Below, in pieces: positions 48,338 to 54,678 of a stretch of DNA of 64,000 nt. Source of the DNA: Vulcanimicrobiota bacterium. Its GTDB lineage: Bacteria > Vulcanimicrobiota > Xenobia > Xenobiales > JADMJV01. The stretch is taken from assembly GCA_050250895.1 (NCBI GenBank), contig JBFWNU010000005.1, positions 352,001-416,000 on the forward strand, read 5' to 3'. Position 1 is the stretch's first letter. Each line of letters starts with the position of its first letter. A program made the translations under genes and the position numbers. The notes beneath the pieces were generated by a model. The model was not told where the DNA came from. It made no database searches and saw only the letters and a list, made by a program, of their open reading frames with translations.

Positions 48338-49549
48338 GTGGTCTTGGTGGGCTGTTCGGGGGCGGGCAAATCGACCTTCGCCGCCCGCCATTTTCTGCCC
48401 ACCCAGATCGTCAGTTCGGACACCTGCCGAGCCCTGGTGGGCGACGACCCCAACGATCAGACGGTCACCCCCCAGGCCTTTGCTCTGGTCGACTTTCTCA
48501 TCCACCAGCGCCTCTCGCTCAAGCGCCTGACCGTGGTCGACGCCACCAGCGTCAAGCCCGAAGATCGCAAGCGGCTGCGCCTGCTGGCCAAAGAGCACGA
48601 CCTTCCGGCGGTGGCGATCGTGCTCGATGTCGACCGTGAGACGCTGCGGCGCCGTCGCCTCGAGCGTAGCGACCGCAGCGTTCCCGAGGAGGTGCTGCAG
48701 ACCCAATTTCAGACCTTGCGCGACAGCCTTTCAGGGTTGGCCAGGGAGCGGTTTAAATACACTCACCACCTCCGTCACGGATTTGATCAGGTCGAGATCC
48801 AGCGCGTGCCGCTGCGCTGCGATCGCCGTTACGACCCGGGACCGTTCGACATTATCGGCGATCTTCATGGCTGCTATCCGGAGCTGCTCGAGTTGTTGGG
48901 CAAGCTGGGTTATCAGGGCACCACCCCACCACCGGGGCGCCGGGCCTTGTTTCTGGGGGACCTGACTGACCGCGGGCCAGACTCGCCGGCCTGCCTGCGG
49001 CTGGTGATGGACATGGTCGGCCGCGGCCAGGCACTTTGTGTGCCCGGCAATCACGACGACAAGCTGGTGCGCTGGCTCAAGGGGGCCCAGCTCAAAGTCG
49101 GCCGCGGTCTCGAGACCACCGTGGCTCAACTCGAAGGCCTCGAAGATGACTTTCGCCAACAGCTACTAAGCTTCTATGAAGACCTGCCCACCCATTATGT
49201 GCTCGACGGGGGCAACCTGGTGGTGGCCCACGGAGGCATGCCCGAGCATCTCCAGGGCCGGAGCAGCGGTCGAGTGCGCTCGTTCGCCCTCTATGGGGAC
49301 ACCACGGGCAAGACCGATGCCCAGGGCTTTCCCATCCGCCGCGATTGGGCCCGCGACTACCGCGGGCAGGCGCTGGTGGTCTATGGACACACGCCCATCG
49401 AAGAGGCCCAGTTCATCAACAACACCATCAATATCGATACGGGCGCCGTTTTCGGAGGCCGCCTCACTTGCCTGCGCTACCCTGAACGAGAACTGGTGTC
49501 GGTGCCCGCCCAGCAAACCTACTATGAGCATCCTTTGGCGGAGCGGTAA
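48338..49549 (+). CDS. Polynucleotide kinase-phosphatase (Pnkp kinase + metallophosphoesterase), no ligase domain
   Basis: GCSGAGKST, SSD..R, VDAT; GDLHG, GDLTDRGP, GNHD, HGG, YGHTP, NIDTG; possible CTG start at 48302. Confidence 0.92.
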   Translation: MVLVGCSGAGKSTFAARHFLPTQIVSSDTCRALVGDDPNDQTVTPQAFALVDFLIHQRLSLKRLTVVDATSVKPEDRKRLRLLAKEHDLPAVAIVLDVDRETLRRRRLERSDRSVPEEVLQTQFQTLRDSLSGLARERFKYTHHLRHGFDQVEIQRVPLRCDRRYDPGPFDIIGDLHGCYPELLELLGKLGYQGTTPPPGRRALFLGDLTDRGPDSPACLRLVMDMVGRGQALCVPGNHDDKLVRWLKGAQLKVGRGLETTVAQLEGLEDDFRQQLLSFYEDLPTHYVLDGGNLVVAHGGMPEHLQGRSSGRVRSFALYGDTTGKTDAQGFPIRRDWARDYRGQALVVYGHTPIEEAQFINNTINIDTGAVFGGRLTCLRYPERELVSVPAQQTYYEHPLAER

Positions 49550-49736: not shown

Positions 49737-50096
49737 ATGACCCAATTTGCAACACTGGCCGGCACGAACGCCGCGGTCGATCTTCGGACGCCGCGCTCGA
49801 CTTACGATGCGTTCTGCCGTTCGATTCTCCAGGGCAAGACGGAGCAGCTCTGGAGCGTCGTGCACCCGGAACTTCGGTTCCTGTTGCAGCGCCAGTACTA
49901 TCAGATGGGGGAATTCCGTTTCCTTAGCTCTCTTCGCGACTTGGTGGCTGGTGGGGGACTACGTCTATCCCTGGGCAACCCCGAACCGGTAACCTCCGGG
50001 ACGGTCCGTTGCCCCCTGCTCCGCTCCGGCCACCAAGTCGGTCAAGCCAGATTCTCGTTTAGCGAGAACTCCTGGCTCCTCTTCTCTTTAAACTAG
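49737..50096 (+). CDS. Small hypothetical protein (119 aa)
   Basis: GGGAGG RBS and ATG at 49737 (the 3' part of track ORF 49176-50096); TAGTG overlap with the NYN gene. Confidence 0.7.
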   Translation: MTQFATLAGTNAAVDLRTPRSTYDAFCRSILQGKTEQLWSVVHPELRFLLQRQYYQMGEFRFLSSLRDLVAGGGLRLSLGNPEPVTSGTVRCPLLRSGHQVGQARFSFSENSWLLFSLN

Positions 50097-50881
50097 TGGC
50101 CGCAGTAATTACCCCCCGCAACGACGAGGCCAACCTGGCCCTCTTTATCGACTTCGACAACCTCGCCATCGGCGTGCGCCAGTCGGGCTATGACAAATTC
50201 GATATCCATCTGTTGATGAAACGCCTCCTCGAGAAGGGGCGTATTTTATTTCGTCGAGCCTACTGCGACTGGTCGAATTTTCCCGAGTACAAGCGCCCTT
50301 TCCATGAGGCAGCCATCGAGATGTTCGACATCCCTCAGCGCAGCATCGGCGGCAAGAACTCGGCCGACATCCGGATGGTGGTGGACGCTCTCGATCTGTG
50401 CTACACCCGGCCCCACATCGACCTTTTCGTCATCGCCTCCGGCGATTCCGACTTCTCGCCGCTGGTCTCGAAGCTGCGCGAGAACAACAAGCGCGTCATC
50501 GGCGTGGGGGTCAAGAACTCGACTTCAGACCTGCTGGTCGACAACTGCGACGAGTTCGTCTTTTACGAAGATCTCATCCGCGGTCGCCGCGTGACCCACC
50601 ACCTCGACAACCTGCCCAAGAAAAAGCAAGAACTCTTCTCGTTACTTGAAGACGCCGTGCAGGCGCTGCAGCGCCAGAACAAAGAGATCCTGTGGAGTTC
50701 GATGGTCAAGCAGATGATGAAACGCTTGCGGCCGACCTTCGACATGGACTACTTCGGCTATCGCACCTTCTCGAAGCTGCTCGAAGACGCCGAGAAGCAC
50801 AAGGTCGTCAACATCGAGCGCGACGAGCGGAGCGGGTCTTACATCATCCTCGACCTGGGAGAATACGCCCCGGGGGCTTGA
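50096..50881 (+). CDS. NYN-domain protein with C-terminal OST-HTH/LOTUS domain
   Basis: FIDFDN, KNSADIRMVVDA, SGDSDF, CDEF; FDMDYFGYRTFSKLL LOTUS motif. Confidence 0.94.
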   Translation: MAAVITPRNDEANLALFIDFDNLAIGVRQSGYDKFDIHLLMKRLLEKGRILFRRAYCDWSNFPEYKRPFHEAAIEMFDIPQRSIGGKNSADIRMVVDALDLCYTRPHIDLFVIASGDSDFSPLVSKLRENNKRVIGVGVKNSTSDLLVDNCDEFVFYEDLIRGRRVTHHLDNLPKKKQELFSLLEDAVQALQRQNKEILWSSMVKQMMKRLRPTFDMDYFGYRTFSKLLEDAEKHKVVNIERDERSGSYIILDLGEYAPGA

Positions 50882-50902
50882 CCTTGAGAGGTGTGCTCTC
50901 GA

Positions 50903-50935
50903 GGTGAAAACCGCAAAGGCGCTGAGGCGCCGAGG
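50903..50935 (+). repeat. Left 33-nt imperfect inverted repeat of the ATPase cassette
   Basis: GGTGAAAACCGCAAAGGCGCTGAGGCGCCGAGG; 27/33 identical to the reverse complement of 53508-53540. Confidence 0.8.
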
Positions 50936-50995
50936 GGTGGGCGTCTGGGTGAACCGCGGGGGTCCGCGGAGTGGTTGAGGTAGCGTCGGCGCCTG

Positions 50996-51898
50996 CTAGT
51001 CGGGGCACTTCCAGCCAGACTCGGTTCGGAGAGAGCCTTTTTTCTTGGTCGGCACGTGATGAAGGTCGCCGGGTGAACCCTCTTCGGGCGGGGCCCCGAA
51101 TTGAACCACATTGATCTGGTCTAGGCCAATTTGCTGGACCAGGTTTGGGTTAATGATAAAGACATCCCAATGGCGAGTCACGCCCGGGGTATTCGGCGGT
51201 GCCCAGAAATTGTTCAGTCGATCGACGAACACAGGCTTGGATTGATGGGTTGTGACGGCTACGGTGTCTCGCTTCCACCACTTCTCGGCCGGGCAAAAGG
51301 GGCATCGCGCGCCATCAGCCGCCCCGGGCAGGCGCCAATCATAGCGGGTCGTCCACGGTTGTTCTAGGTGGCGGCGGTGATACACGCACGCAATCTCGAC
51401 CGGGTTGGGGGTCCTCGGCTGAAGATACAAGCGCCACCGAAGCGGCTCGTCGAGCACCGTGTCTTTCGCTTGATGTCTCTTGAGGTTGCGACCGAGAACA
51501 GGCTTGCAGAGCAGGAACGGGGTCTTATTTGCTCGGATGAGATGCCAGGCGGCGGCCGCCATCCGGTCGGGCCAATCGCTCGAGAGTCCGGCGCTGCCGA
51601 ACATCGACTTGAATCCCCAGGCAAAGTCGGTTGGTGGGGTCGATTCCGGCTCGGACACCGGAGAAAATTTGGCAGGGGTCCCTACTTTCCGAAACTGGCT
51701 CAAGCGAAGGTCAAGTCGCGGGGATTTCTGTTGTAGGGGGCGGATGAGTTCCAGCCAGAGTGGGTTCCAGTAGTCGGGAACCGCCCAAAGCGTAGCCCCG
51801 ACCGCTCGGAGAAACTGCAGAATGAAGTCCAGGTCCTGACACAGGTCATTTTCATCAGGACTCCCCGCGAAGAAGGCGGGATCCAGTATCGCATTCAC
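50996..51898 (-). CDS. Uncharacterised protein with putative toxin-RNase-like C-terminus
   Basis: GTGA overlap with the ATPase; C-terminal FVDRLNNFW..HWDVF..INV..GDLHH. Confidence 0.75.
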   Translation of the reverse strand: MNAILDPAFFAGSPDENDLCQDLDFILQFLRAVGATLWAVPDYWNPLWLELIRPLQQKSPRLDLRLSQFRKVGTPAKFSPVSEPESTPPTDFAWGFKSMFGSAGLSSDWPDRMAAAAWHLIRANKTPFLLCKPVLGRNLKRHQAKDTVLDEPLRWRLYLQPRTPNPVEIACVYHRRHLEQPWTTRYDWRLPGAADGARCPFCPAEKWWKRDTVAVTTHQSKPVFVDRLNNFWAPPNTPGVTRHWDVFIINPNLVQQIGLDQINVVQFGAPPEEGSPGDLHHVPTKKKGSLRTESGWKCPD

Positions 51899-53439
51899 AG
51901 ATTGGGTTCGTCCGACGGGTCATGAACAATTCTCAACGAAGAATAGTCGGCCGCTGGTTCCTTCGCAAGACTGGCGTAGTAGATGGCTGAGTCTTCTTCA
52001 CTTCCCTCGTCCATAAAGTCGTCCGGCCAGCACTCCAGGCCGCCAGTTGAGGTTAGACGCGACTCCCGTATGGTCGAGTGACCTTGGCAGTCCTGTTCGA
52101 CTTCGTAAATGACGACATTGTTGATCAACCAGGACTCGATTTCACTCTGGGCCGGAGCTCGCGCGACTAGACCGCGCAATCGGCGCACCAGATGGTCGCT
52201 GTGTGTCTCGACGAGAATTCGCCGATTGCTCCGGGCCAGACCTACTAACCAATTCGCCAAACGGCTCTGCACCTTTGGATGCAGGTGGGCTTCCGGTTCT
52301 TCCAAGGCAATGTGCGACACCTGGTTGCAGGCACTTATGTAATCAGGGAGTGGCAGATTCCCGTGAGCCTCAAACCTGAGCGGATCTGCCAGCAGACCTA
52401 GTTCAACCAACGGCAACAGGTAGGTCAACCCCCGTCCGACATGGGGCAGGCTGGCGTTTCCGAATAATAGACGAAAACCCACCTCCTGTACCTCTTCAAC
52501 GCTCAGATCGACATTGATCGAGAGTTCCTTTAGAACGTCGTTGACAGCCTCTACCAACGAACGCTCGTGAACCAGTTCCGGTGGCTCGGCAGTCGGAAGG
52601 GTATAGTGAACCAGATCGTTCTGGCGTCGATGAAGAAGCTGGGCCGCGAGTTCCCCACTCACGCCAATCTCCTGGGGAGCTACGTTGGATGTCTTGTACA
52701 GGCTCGGAGGGGAAGTTCGAATTGAGCCCAGGTATTGAAAACCCGCCAATAAGCGCTTTAGCGCCTCCAGAGGTTGGCTGAAAAGGAGGTGGAACGCATT
52801 GAAATAGGCTCGTTCGCGATCCCTAGGACCAACCTGGCTACGGTCTATCAATAAATACGGGAGAAAATGGTCGAGTTCGACCTCGAGCTTGGCTGTTTCG
52901 ATGTCGCGATACCAACAGCGCCAGCCAGTTTGGATAGACTCAAAGCGGAAGAGCTCCTCTTTCTCGAGCCCCGAAGACAAGCCGATCTCGGAAATCGACG
53001 TAGTGCCGCGAACCTCTTGGGTGTGGAGTCGCAACTTTGACGTCAAGGGGCTGGGGATGTTGTCGAGCCATTCCAATTTGGAGTGCTTCTTGAGATTCGC
53101 GATATCCGGCTGTCGCAACTCCCCTAGCGCCCGGTCCACATCGATCTCGGCCTCCCAACGAAGAGTCATGCTGGGACCATCCACTACATCCCCTGCTTTG
53201 GGCCACCCGGTTGTGAGTTCCCTTAAGTTGAAGGCGCTCAGATAGTTGCCGTCGAGCTGAATTTGAACTTCGGGACGAGGCTCGCTGAGTGTTTGTTTGA
53301 GCAAAAGGAGACTTTGAATAAGGCTGCTCTTGCCGCTATTGTTTCGTCCTAGTAGAACCGTCAATGGAGCCAGACGCATATGAGCGGGCGCAGCGAAGCT
53401 CTTGAACCTTTCGACCTCTAGAGACAAAATCTGACTCAT
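51895..53439 (-). CDS. ABC-type ATPase (AAA_15/AAA_21-like) with DUF3696-like C-terminus
   Basis: FKSF, Walker A GRNNSGKS, Walker B/D-loop LEEPEAHLHP, H-loop ETHSD, C-terminal WPDDFMD. Confidence 0.92.
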   Translation of the reverse strand: MSQILSLEVERFKSFAAPAHMRLAPLTVLLGRNNSGKSSLIQSLLLLKQTLSEPRPEVQIQLDGNYLSAFNLRELTTGWPKAGDVVDGPSMTLRWEAEIDVDRALGELRQPDIANLKKHSKLEWLDNIPSPLTSKLRLHTQEVRGTTSISEIGLSSGLEKEELFRFESIQTGWRCWYRDIETAKLEVELDHFLPYLLIDRSQVGPRDRERAYFNAFHLLFSQPLEALKRLLAGFQYLGSIRTSPPSLYKTSNVAPQEIGVSGELAAQLLHRRQNDLVHYTLPTAEPPELVHERSLVEAVNDVLKELSINVDLSVEEVQEVGFRLLFGNASLPHVGRGLTYLLPLVELGLLADPLRFEAHGNLPLPDYISACNQVSHIALEEPEAHLHPKVQSRLANWLVGLARSNRRILVETHSDHLVRRLRGLVARAPAQSEIESWLINNVVIYEVEQDCQGHSTIRESRLTSTGGLECWPDDFMDEGSEEDSAIYYASLAKEPAADYSSLRIVHDPSDEPNL

Positions 53440-53552: not shown

Positions 53553-54584
53553 CTACCAGGGCACAGGCTTGGGGCAGATGGAGTCATAGCCCATCTGATG
53601 CCAGTAGGGATAGGTGGGATGGCGGCGGCTGACCTGGTCGAGGCGCTCGAGTTGGTCGCTCGAGAGCTCCCATCCCACCGCCTCCAGGTTGGCCCGCAGC
53701 TGTTTTTCGTTGCGGGCGCCGACGACCAGGTTGGCTACGGTGGGCCGGGTCAAGAGCCAGTTCAGGGCCACCTGGGGCACGGTCTTGCCGGTCTCTTCGG
53801 CCACCTCGAAGAGGACATCCACCACGGAATAGAGGTATTCGTCGTCGACCTGAGGGCCGCCCACGTCGCCGCCGGATTGGATGCGGCCCTTCTCCATGGG
53901 CTGGCCGCGCCGGATCTTGCCGGTGAGACGAGCCCAGCCGAGCGGGCTCCAGACCATCAGGCCCACCCCCTGGTCAAGGCCCAGCGGCATCAGTTCCCAC
54001 TCATAGTCGCGCCCGATCAGCGAGTAATAACCCTGATAGGCGGCAAAGCGCGTCCAACCGTGCCGGTCCGAGGTGGCCAGGGCCTTCATCACTTGCCAGC
54101 CCGAGTAGTTCGAGCAACCGATGTAGCGCACCTTGCCCGCCCTCACCAGGTCGTCCAGAGCGCGCAAGATCTCTTCCACCGGGGTCTTGGTGTCGGGGCC
54201 ATGCAAGAAATAGAGGTCGATATAGTCGGTGCCCAGGCGTTTGAGGCTGGCCTCGCAGGCCCGGACCAGGTGGTAGCGCGACGAGCCCCGTTCATTGGGC
54301 GTGGGGCCCATGGAGAAGGTCGCTTTGGTCGAGATGAGGGCCTTATCGCGCTTGCCCTTGAGGGCTTTCCCCAGGATGGTCTCCGAGTCGCCGTTGGAGT
54401 AGACGTCGGCGGTGTCGAAGAAATTGACTCCCGCCTCCAGGCAGATGTCGACCAGGCGAGTAGCCTCTTTGACCTCGGTCTTGCCCCATCGCTCGAAGAA
54501 CTCGCCGGTGCCACCAAAGGTGCCGGTCCCGAAACTGAGCACGGGCACATGCAGGCCCGATCTACCTAACTGACGGTATTCCAT
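53553..54584 (-). CDS. Aldo/keto reductase
   Basis: MEYRQLGRSGL, FDTADVY, SLKRLGTDYIDLY, GKVRYIGCSN, WSPL; AAGGAG RBS. Confidence 0.97.
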   Translation of the reverse strand: MEYRQLGRSGLHVPVLSFGTGTFGGTGEFFERWGKTEVKEATRLVDICLEAGVNFFDTADVYSNGDSETILGKALKGKRDKALISTKATFSMGPTPNERGSSRYHLVRACEASLKRLGTDYIDLYFLHGPDTKTPVEEILRALDDLVRAGKVRYIGCSNYSGWQVMKALATSDRHGWTRFAAYQGYYSLIGRDYEWELMPLGLDQGVGLMVWSPLGWARLTGKIRRGQPMEKGRIQSGGDVGGPQVDDEYLYSVVDVLFEVAEETGKTVPQVALNWLLTRPTVANLVVGARNEKQLRANLEAVGWELSSDQLERLDQVSRRHPTYPYWHQMGYDSICPKPVPW

Positions 54585-54678
54585 AGCGCTTCTCCTTAGA
54601 CCCATCGACTACGTGGCCAGGCCCGCGTGGACCTGTCGCAAGGCAGGATACCCCTCCGCCAACCAGAACGGTCCCGGC

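Follow-up and report, generated by a model that had tools for sequence, protein, structure and literature searches.

A two-gene cassette of an NsnB-like ABC ATPase and an Ntox17-like effector in a Vulcanimicrobiota genome: a probable sensor-less relative of the Menshen defence core

The window analyzed here, a stretch of 64,000 nt from a Vulcanimicrobiota bacterium (assembly GCA_050250895.1, contig JBFWNU010000005.1, positions 352,001 to 416,000), carries a pair of overlapping genes, one for an ABC-type ATPase and one for a two-module partner protein. We hold it to be rather probable that this pair is a horizontally acquired anti-phage module of the ABC-ATPase plus effector class, in which an NsnB-like ATPase and an NsnC-like effector occur without NsnA, the sensor component of the Menshen system. 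The NsnB–NsnC layout without NsnA is assigned because the best match of the ATPase is NsnB, and the partner combines a PIN-like with an Ntox17-like domain. On this reading, the pair belongs with Menshen and HEC-03 among the defence systems in which an ATPase gates a toxin, as a variant that has no sensor and is armed with an Ntox17-like domain.

The first-pass annotation of the locus, made from the letters alone, had proposed an undescribed defence cassette consisting of a DUF3696-type ABC ATPase and an effector with an Ntox17-like RNase tail, with no obvious match to PARIS or Septu. The layout of ABC ATPase plus effector, the Ntox17-like tail, and the separation from PARIS and Septu all stand. 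The word "undescribed" is too strong, because the architecture is that of the NsnB–NsnC module of Menshen (PMC12065111), and a sensor-less pair, HEC-03, has also been published (bioRxiv 10.1101/2024.01.29.577857); "RNase" goes back to a database prediction (PMC4436062) and is attached to a confident structural model that has no solved relative.

An NsnB-like ATPase and its two-module partner

The ATPase matches the Pfam families AAA_15 (1.5e-19) and AAA_21 (6.1e-17). Its top PADLOC model is NsnB of Menshen (2.1e-56, model positions 3–336 of 345), followed by PDC-M55A (8.5e-34), HEC-03B (3.3e-31), and AriA (5.5e-21); among NCBIfam models none is matched at the cut-off, PtuA being marginal (0.0045). 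The motif set of an ABC ATPase is complete in the 24 orthologues of the conservation alignment (A4), with Walker A, a Walker B of the hhhhEE form, a GxG variant of the signature motif, and the H-loop (Table 1). The three motifs named in the first-pass annotation, GRNNSGKS, EEPEAHLHP, and ETHSD, are thus present, and they are invariant or nearly so. The label "DUF3696-type" holds in part: the Pfam match at residues 452–478 (E 0.0053, 17.4 bits) lies under the cut-off of 22 bits, but the window ATPase aligns over its full length, tail included, with the HEC-03 ATPase of its own genome, which is DUF3696-positive (27% identity, E 2e-27), and by this alignment the two tails are homologous. The features that define NsnB in Menshen, namely an ABC ATPase of the OLD type with a C-terminal DUF3696 tail, are accordingly seen in the window ATPase, with the Pfam score for the tail below threshold.

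The clade of this ATPase contains at least 548 clusters at E<=1e-20. Named members mostly bear just the label "AAA family ATPase" or "predicted ATPase"; a precomputed DUF3696 assignment is found for none of the 120 listed. Some members (P0271, P0275, P0278, P0295, and others) are about 690–713 aa long, i.e., 160–180 aa beyond the usual 530 aa, and the extra part could be an added sensor domain.

The partner of the window matches no model in Pfam, PADLOC (5027 models, E<=0.1), or NCBIfam. Grouped at 90% identity, its family has 10 clusters; at 50% there are 113 representatives (E<=0.001), nearly all of about 300 aa. The public gene call for the window partner is 220 aa long (P0001), or 73% of the open reading frame (ORF). 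Alignments with homologues of other phyla span 99% of the 300-aa ORF that begins with GTG, the conserved LDP start included, so the 300-aa reading is the right one and the start in the public record is probably mis-called. Given the 113 cluster representatives of the partner and the at least 548 clusters of the ATPase, both genes are real by sequence conservation and not chance ORFs.

An AlphaFold2 model of the partner, built with 73 sequences (pLDDT 94.7, pTM 0.91), shows an alpha/beta domain at approximately residues 1–135 and then a beta-rich C-terminal part; modelled alone, the latter (residues 133–300) forms a compact globule with pLDDT 96.6. The first-pass annotation had noted a PIN-like start. 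PIN domains are indeed the best matches of the whole partner in a Foldseek search of PDB (1w8i, 3zvk (VapC2), and 1v8p (PAE2754)), but with non-significant scores (E 0.26–1.4, TM on target 0.39–0.44; the top match has E 0.26 and probability 0.44). The protein begins with MNAILDP, and the only conserved acid of residues 1–135 in the 73 sequences is D6, together with P7. Instead of the four-acid metal site of PIN nucleases (D-E-D-D), D6 alone is conserved; as the other PIN acids are missing, the domain fits the description of an inactive PIN, and it is probably devoid of catalytic activity. A sequence-profile search of PDB with the diverse partner alignment A2 gives noise (best E 0.19), while ESM Atlas returns unnamed clusters for residues 195–300 and no usable match for residues 1–135.

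The C-terminal domain is, at the level of sequence profiles, homologous to the Ntox17 toxin core (PF15524). Aligned by hhalign with 94 distinct Ntox17 domains, the partner family (A2) reaches a probability of 94.9% (E 4.3e-8, score 53.5) over partner residues 187–264, against a score of 25.5 (11.4%) for the reversed control and 22.0 (4.1%) for the best of 20 column shuffles. A permissive alignment extends to partner residues 158–282 and takes in the whole Ntox17 domain. The 94-sequence profile is needed for this result, single Ntox17 sequences giving 70% and 58%. Six of the 73 members of the partner family match the Pfam Ntox17 model itself (E<=1), the best being the divergent member P0099 with 25.7 bits (gathering score 25), at residues 174–246 and model positions 7–81 of 98. 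The window partner, whole or as its C-terminal 114 aa, does not match this model even at E<=10.

The first-pass pattern FVDRLNNFW..HWDVF..INV..GDLHH is present in the tail. Positions common to the partner core and Ntox17 are LP, G, FxP, DxxGNxW, WDV, NV, and G..H. The HWDV motif of the partner aligns with E76, W77, D78, and V79 of Ntox17, of which the first three are conserved in 100% and V79 in 96% of the domains; the Glu of the Ntox17 "ExD" motif is hence replaced by an invariant His (H243) in the partner family. H281 falls on H109 of Ntox17 in the extended alignment, with low confidence. A pair of His or Glu with His, acting as acid and base, would be compatible with a metal-independent RNase. 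The Ntox17 sample comprises 2 domains from genomes and 120 from a protein search, the latter all with PF15524, and in 120 of these 120 the domain is the C-terminal toxin tip of a polymorphic toxin of the CdiA, Rhs, or MafB type. Genome scans retrieve Ntox17 from 2 of 400 genomes of the class of the Pseudomonas locus and from none of 401 genomes of the host phylum.

No relative of the toxin domain is seen by Foldseek in PDB (best E 1.1) or BFVD (best E 0.2), and the whole partner has none in PDB at E<=0.001. A colicin E3-like fold, suspected from an EWD..H motif, was dropped because these searches gave no match at E<=0.001.

Pairing, predicted complex, and mobility

Scans with the partner family yielded 36 related loci, 14 in species genomes and 22 in metagenomes; they were made with the alignment A1, A2 being too diverse. 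Five loci with less than 100 nt of upstream sequence (L011, L032, L035, L036, and L040) were left out of the pairing count. All 31 evaluable loci have the ATPase gene immediately before the partner gene, at an estimated distance of 0–21 nt, so the co-occurrence that the first-pass annotation had suggested checking is strict. Named hosts include Myxococcota, cyanobacteria, Pseudomonas, Magnetococcales, and a beta-proteobacterium; the sole Limisphaerales locus (L011) is among the five that are not evaluable. All-against-all clustering of the flanking ORFs of the 36 loci reveals no conserved third gene, and a Pfam scan of 20 flanking ORFs of related loci finds ParB-DUF262 in 0/20. The two DUF262 genes of the host genome (GmrSD_N/DUF262) are on contig C1, and the pair is on contig C5. 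Within the 401 genomes of the class of the Pseudomonas genome G401, the ATPase clade is detected at E<=1e-40 in G401 alone (0/400 others), a count that is a floor, with at most three candidates scored per genome; no case of the clade with a different effector was found.

A predicted complex of the full ATPase and the full partner, with alignments, scores 0.65 (runs 0.65, 0.64, and 0.68) versus 0.45 for the best control. The mark applied is reached by 58/80 solved complexes and by 2/110 mismatched pairs. Contacts agree between runs by at least 75%, and pLDDT of the partner is at least 83. The predicted interface joins ATPase residues 481–514 with partner residues 41–70 and 88–118, with few contacts at 156–168 and 206–210. 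The structure prediction proposed in the first-pass annotation therefore passes its controls, narrowly, and supports binding of the two proteins in the model.

The cassette is horizontally acquired and patchily distributed. It was described at first pass as visibly more AT-rich than its surroundings, and it is in fact the G+C minimum of the window: the pair has a G+C content of 0.564 and the ATPase of 0.546, versus 0.631 on average over the window (sd 0.019 among stretches as long as the pair), and among 616 such stretches none other is as low. The partner was found in none of the 60 related genomes searched, the same-genus genome G088 included. Synteny with G088 (C141, L051) stops exactly at the stop codon of the left-hand neighbour of the cassette (window 50872–50995), and the 11.9 kb beyond that codon in G088 match nothing anywhere in the window; the cassette hence lies at a rearrangement breakpoint and not at a clean insertion site. 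An empty site was sought in the same-genus genome, where no clean boundaries are seen and the synteny just ends.

Several related loci lie among defence genes. In L008 the pair is flanked by DrmMI (E 0) on one side and, beyond a PLD protein, by DrmA (1e-284) on the other; altogether, a DrmA-like neighbour is present in six loci and a DrmMI-like one in four. In L010, XhoI and an Eco57I-type methylase are directly upstream. In L026 and L028 another AAA_15/AAA_21 ATPase directly precedes the pair (L026:4155-6118, L028:4428-5570), that of L026 being PDC-M38A/AbiLi-like by PADLOC and followed by a DUF3226 protein; both loci are stacks of two ATPase-based candidate systems. Elsewhere the neighbours are metabolic, e.g., aconitase in L004 and prolyl oligopeptidase in L023. 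A defence-island setting is thus seen at some loci, with DISARM or restriction-modification (R-M) genes, but not in the window or at most of the others. Three metagenome proteins (P0105, P0115, and P0120) join an Eco57I/DrmMI-like methylase, or an N- or C-terminal part of the ATPase, directly to the last 45–70 partner residues; they look as if copies embedded in DISARM had been shortened by deletion or joined as chimeras during assembly. In two further loci the partner is damaged, by a frameshift in L013 (L013:8001-8892) and by a cut at about residue 197 in L014 (L014:8001-8582), with the ATPase intact in both; these are decaying effector copies.

Relation to known systems and alternative explanations

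Menshen is built of the DNA sensor NsnA (ParB-DUF262), the ABC ATPase NsnB with its DUF3696 tail, and NsnC, in which an effector follows an inactive PIN domain (PMC12065111; Li et al., NAR 2025). The effectors fall into 15 families, of which at least 12 are likely nucleases and nine have BECR RNase folds; in NsnB, GxG replaces SGG, and the protein of S. silvestris has EN at Walker B; about 28% of the operons are linked to BREX or R-M genes; and in AlphaFold 3 models the DUF3696 tails of an NsnB dimer clasp the PIN domain (PMC12065111). The window pair resembles this system in its NsnB-like ATPase with the GxG signature and the DUF3696-like tail; in a downstream effector that starts with a PIN-like, probably inactive, domain and ends with a toxin domain shared with polymorphic toxins; in the predicted tail-to-PIN geometry; and in the occasional linkage of its relatives to methylase and restriction genes. 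It differs in that NsnA is lacking, the gene upstream of the ATPase being an aldo/keto reductase; in that Walker B of its clade has EE, whereas S. silvestris NsnB has EN; and in that the ATPase runs about 170 aa beyond the 345-position NsnB model. The window partner matches no NsnC model of PADLOC, although its position directly downstream and its two-module build agree with NsnC. The Ntox17-like effector is not among the 15 NsnC C-terminal families of the main text of PMC12065111, which names relatives of Ntox18 and Ntox21. Ntox17-like NsnC might still be among the effectors surveyed, e.g., under "PB-UF1", a domain tied in the main text to T6SS toxins with Imm15, not Imm31. The survey covered 1997 loci and was seeded on ParB-DUF262, so that sensor-less pairs fall outside it; a term search of the main text finds neither an NsnA-less form nor HEC-03 (PMC12065111).

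In HEC-03, an ABC ATPase is combined with a VapC-like PIN protein; the system protects E. coli, and both of its genes are required (bioRxiv 10.1101/2024.01.29.577857, Payne et al.). The host genome has a true copy at contig C4:557002-558354 (L020:1447-2799, minus strand), with scores of 3.8e-137 for the ATPase and 1.7e-9 for DUF3696; its partner (L020:965-1450, minus strand; 161 aa, PIN-like, 1.5e-27) overlaps the ATPase gene by 4 nt, and a gene for a BTAD/TPR regulator lies upstream. Shared with the window pair are the two-gene build without a separate sensor, the PIN-type start of the partner, the 4-nt stop/start overlap, and an ATPase homologous over its full length, DUF3696 tail included. 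The HEC-03 partner, however, is a VapC-like PIN of 161 aa and itself the presumed effector, whereas the PIN-like domain of the window lacks the acid set and carries an additional toxin module of 165 aa; the HEC-03 ATPase model gives 3.3e-31 for the window ATPase and 3.8e-137 for the true copy.

As to Ntox17, the homologous core spans about 95–125 residues, with [E/H]WDV as the motif common to both families. The family is listed as "mostly beta; ExD, H" with Imm31 as its immunity protein (Zhang et al., 2012; PMC3482391). In polymorphic toxins the domain is the secreted tip; that of the window, in contrast, is intracellular, forms one protein with a PIN-like domain, and has an ATPase as its companion. 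In addition, the first catalytic candidate is His in the window family and Glu in Ntox17, about 10 residues are inserted ahead of the last His in the window family, and a beta-meander is added on its N-terminal side. PARIS (AriA/AriB) and Septu (PtuA/PtuB) likewise have an ABC ATPase of the OLD/AAA_15 clade that holds a nuclease-type effector, to be released or activated, and the window pair probably works like them. Their components are nonetheless distinct: the ATPase scores only 5.5e-21 on AriA, far below NsnB, and is marginal for PtuA, while the partner has neither Toprim/DUF4435 nor HNH and matches no AriB or PtuB model.

The mode of action proposed for the pair is as follows. The ATPase would oligomerise and hold the effector by its C-terminal DUF3696-like tail, docked on the inactive PIN-like domain, and this docking would keep the C-terminal Ntox17-like toxin domain silent. 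The ATPase may sense a phage cue itself, the candidate sensor being the large, variable insertion that separates Walker A from the signature motif; the cue would alter ATP binding or hydrolysis, and the toxin would then be released or activated. Its action would most likely be a metal-free cleavage of RNA, for which H243, D245, and H281 are the candidate catalytic residues, and the infected cell would stop growing, as in abortive infection. The narrower statement, that the pair is a free-standing system whose ATPase is the phage sensor in place of NsnA and whose effector is a nuclease of the Ntox17 fold, a fold without a solved relative, is put forward only tentatively.

A number of observations weigh against the defence reading and its parts. 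The window partner is invisible to the Pfam, PADLOC, and NCBIfam models, and the Ntox17 link comes from profile-level evidence and divergent bridging members; a six-frame scan of this genome with the Ntox17 model gives nothing even at E<=10. The PIN assignment comes from Foldseek scores that are not significant, and hhalign sees no profile similarity between the window partner and the HEC-03 PIN partner (0.2%), no HEC-03 partner model being matched either. The complex score exceeds the best control by exactly the required 0.20. The neighbours of the pair in the window are ordinary genes, none of them a defence gene, and a defence-island context is evidenced in a subset of the related loci only. 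Tblastn finds no copy on 72,556 plasmids or in 50,697 phage records, and a scan of viral contigs finds none; two of the 14 genome loci have a damaged partner. By Foldseek the toxin domain has no solved or viral structural relative, and the term "RNase" for Ntox17 is a database annotation: a review quotes PF15524, under another toxin name, as "a predicted RNase" (PMC4436062).

The target of the toxin is where a competing explanation is most serious. In an otherwise identical gated-toxin build, the Ntox17-like domain might attack DNA, a nucleotide or cofactor, protein, or the membrane instead of RNA. This we consider unlikely, though worth keeping in mind: no activity assay of Ntox17 turned up in a literature search by its name, name variants, or accession, the fold has no solved relative by Foldseek, and another review places "NTox_17" among predicted pore formers (PMC12288458). 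Yet the conserved polar set of both families (E/H, D, N, and H in a small, beta-rich, soluble domain) resembles an acid–base site more than a pore former. The model of the domain is a compact globule, and the published NsnC effectors are for the most part likely nucleases (at least 12 of 15 families, nine with BECR RNase folds; PMC12065111). A different function altogether would be that of a toxin–antitoxin-like addiction module that stabilises its own DNA, with the ATPase as the antitoxin and no role in phage defence. The tight operon of two genes with overlapping stop and start codons, the patchy distribution and low G+C content, the existence of decaying copies, and the Pfam description of AAA_21 as "putative AbiEii toxin, Type IV TA system" would all suit such a module; we nevertheless regard it as distinctly unlikely, since the nearest characterised relatives, NsnB and HEC-03, are defence systems, the pair occurs inside DISARM operons or beside R-M genes at several loci, and no copy was found on the plasmids and phages searched, where modules of this sort are common.

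The same DISARM and R-M neighbours could, conversely, mean that the pair is an accessory module that needs one of these systems, the window copy then being a functionless orphan. The position of the pair between DrmMI and DrmA in L008, the further DrmA-like and DrmMI-like neighbours, the XhoI and methylase genes directly upstream in L010, and the finding that roughly 28% of the operons of Menshen are linked to BREX or R-M (PMC12065111) point in this direction. Such dependence is very unlikely: in the majority of the 31 paired loci, among them the window, the flanking DNA examined has no DISARM gene, both ORFs of the window are intact and keep every invariant residue, and genes embedded in other systems defended on their own in the HEC study (bioRxiv 10.1101/2024.01.29.577857). 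Hardly tenable, and close to refuted by the distribution, is a housekeeping role in RNA processing together with the convergent NYN nuclease and the Pnkp-like kinase-phosphatase of the window. Their proximity speaks for it (Table 1), but neither is conserved beside the pair in the 36 related loci, the same-genus genome has the NYN gene without the pair, the pair is found in none of the 60 relatives, and its G+C content is foreign to the window. The anti-phage module of NsnB-like ATPase and NsnC-like effector hence remains the preferred reading.

If this reading is true, the pair would be missed by present defence finders, because the models of PADLOC, Pfam, and NCBIfam all miss the partner and the Menshen rules need NsnA; about 100 sequence clusters in several phyla would then constitute an unlisted defence candidate. 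Together with HEC-03, the pair would suggest that the ATPase–effector core of Menshen can stand alone, which bears on how NsnB is triggered; on the narrower, tentative statement above, the NsnB–NsnC core would be an autonomous module onto which sensors are added. That warfare toxins and defence effectors swap toxin domains is well established, and the finding does not overturn current ideas. It would link Ntox17 to an intracellular, tractable two-gene system and so offer a route to its biochemistry and structure, with the prospect, on the narrower statement, of a first activity and a first structure for the whole family.

Features and flanks of the locus

The coordinates of the two genes, their motifs and domains, and the neighbouring genes are given in Table 1. 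The overlap of stop and start codons is as noted at first pass, and so are the housekeeping-type flanks. The claim that the cassette is bracketed by inverted repeats did not survive: the only arm pairs that span it are of 19 nt at 79% and of 13 nt at 92% complementarity, which is at chance level, and the intergenic DNA at both ends contains local GC-rich hairpins only. Inspection of inverted repeats and hairpins gives no sign of terminal repeats of a mobile element at the cassette ends, and a scan for promoters and terminators shows nothing beyond shuffled controls worth reporting.

Table 1. Features of the ATPase–partner cassette and its neighbourhood (coordinates in the window; residue numbers refer to the respective protein).
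Feature	Coordinates	Strand	Remarks
ABC-type ATPase, NsnB-like (OLD/AAA_15 clade), with DUF3696-like C-terminal tail	51895..53439	-	514 aa, ATG start
Walker A, GRNNSGKS, residues 31–38	53326..53349	-	G31, N33, G36, K37, S38 invariant in 24 ATPases
Signature position, GRG (residues 335–337) in HVGRGLxYLLP, GxG variant	52429..52437	-	G335, G337 invariant
Walker B/D-loop, EEPEAHLHP, residues 380–388	52276..52302	-	E380, E381, E383, H385, H387, P388 invariant
H-loop, ETHSD, residues 411–415	52195..52209	-	E411, T412, H413, S414, D415 invariant
C-terminal tail, residues 452–514: DUF3696-like helix region (WPDDFMDE) and acidic end; predicted partner docking site	51898..52086	-	W471, P472, F475, M476, D477, E478 invariant
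GTGA, 4 nt shared by ATPase stop and partner start	51895..51898	-	sequence read
Partner/effector, NsnC-like two-module protein	50996..51898	-	300 aa, GTG start
N-terminal PIN-like alpha/beta domain, residues 1–135; probably inactive, predicted ATPase-tail binder	51494..51898	-	strand–helix order in model, Foldseek
Middle beta-meander and helices, residues 136–186	51341..51493	-	precedes Ntox17-like core; conserved R137, N138, E151, W155, R176, W182, T183, R185
Ntox17-like toxin core, residues 187–282	51053..51340	-	hhalign vs 94 Ntox17 domains; Pfam Ntox17 in 6/73 members
HWDV, residues 243–246; counterpart of Ntox17 "ExD" motif EWDV, candidate catalytic centre	51161..51172	-	H243, D245 invariant in 73 sequences; W244, V246 >=90%
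HH, residues 280–281; counterpart of Ntox17 C-terminal conserved His	51056..51061	-	H281 invariant, H280 >=90%
Pnkp-like kinase-phosphatase	48338..49549	+	403 aa
ORF without Pfam match, last 128 codons	49713..50096	+	306-aa ORF
NYN+OST-HTH gene, left neighbour, convergent	50096..50881		
Aldo/keto reductase, right neighbour, upstream of ATPase	53553..54605		

Further neighbours of the cassette are the Pnkp-like gene and a gene for a GGDEF protein. The Pnkp-like protein has the kinase and phosphatase halves and lacks the ligase half; it matches TIGR04075 with 1.8e-170 and 569 bits (cut-off 750) at model positions 11–423 of 851. The same-genus genome G088 lacks this gene at the corresponding position, its neighbours there being separated by just 165 nt, and it is therefore a second variable insert, 1.4 kb from the cassette. 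The last 128 codons of the 306-aa ORF show 66% protein identity with the same-genus genome, and the ORF ends at the base where the NYN gene begins; probably this is a genuine short gene that shares a transcript with NYN.

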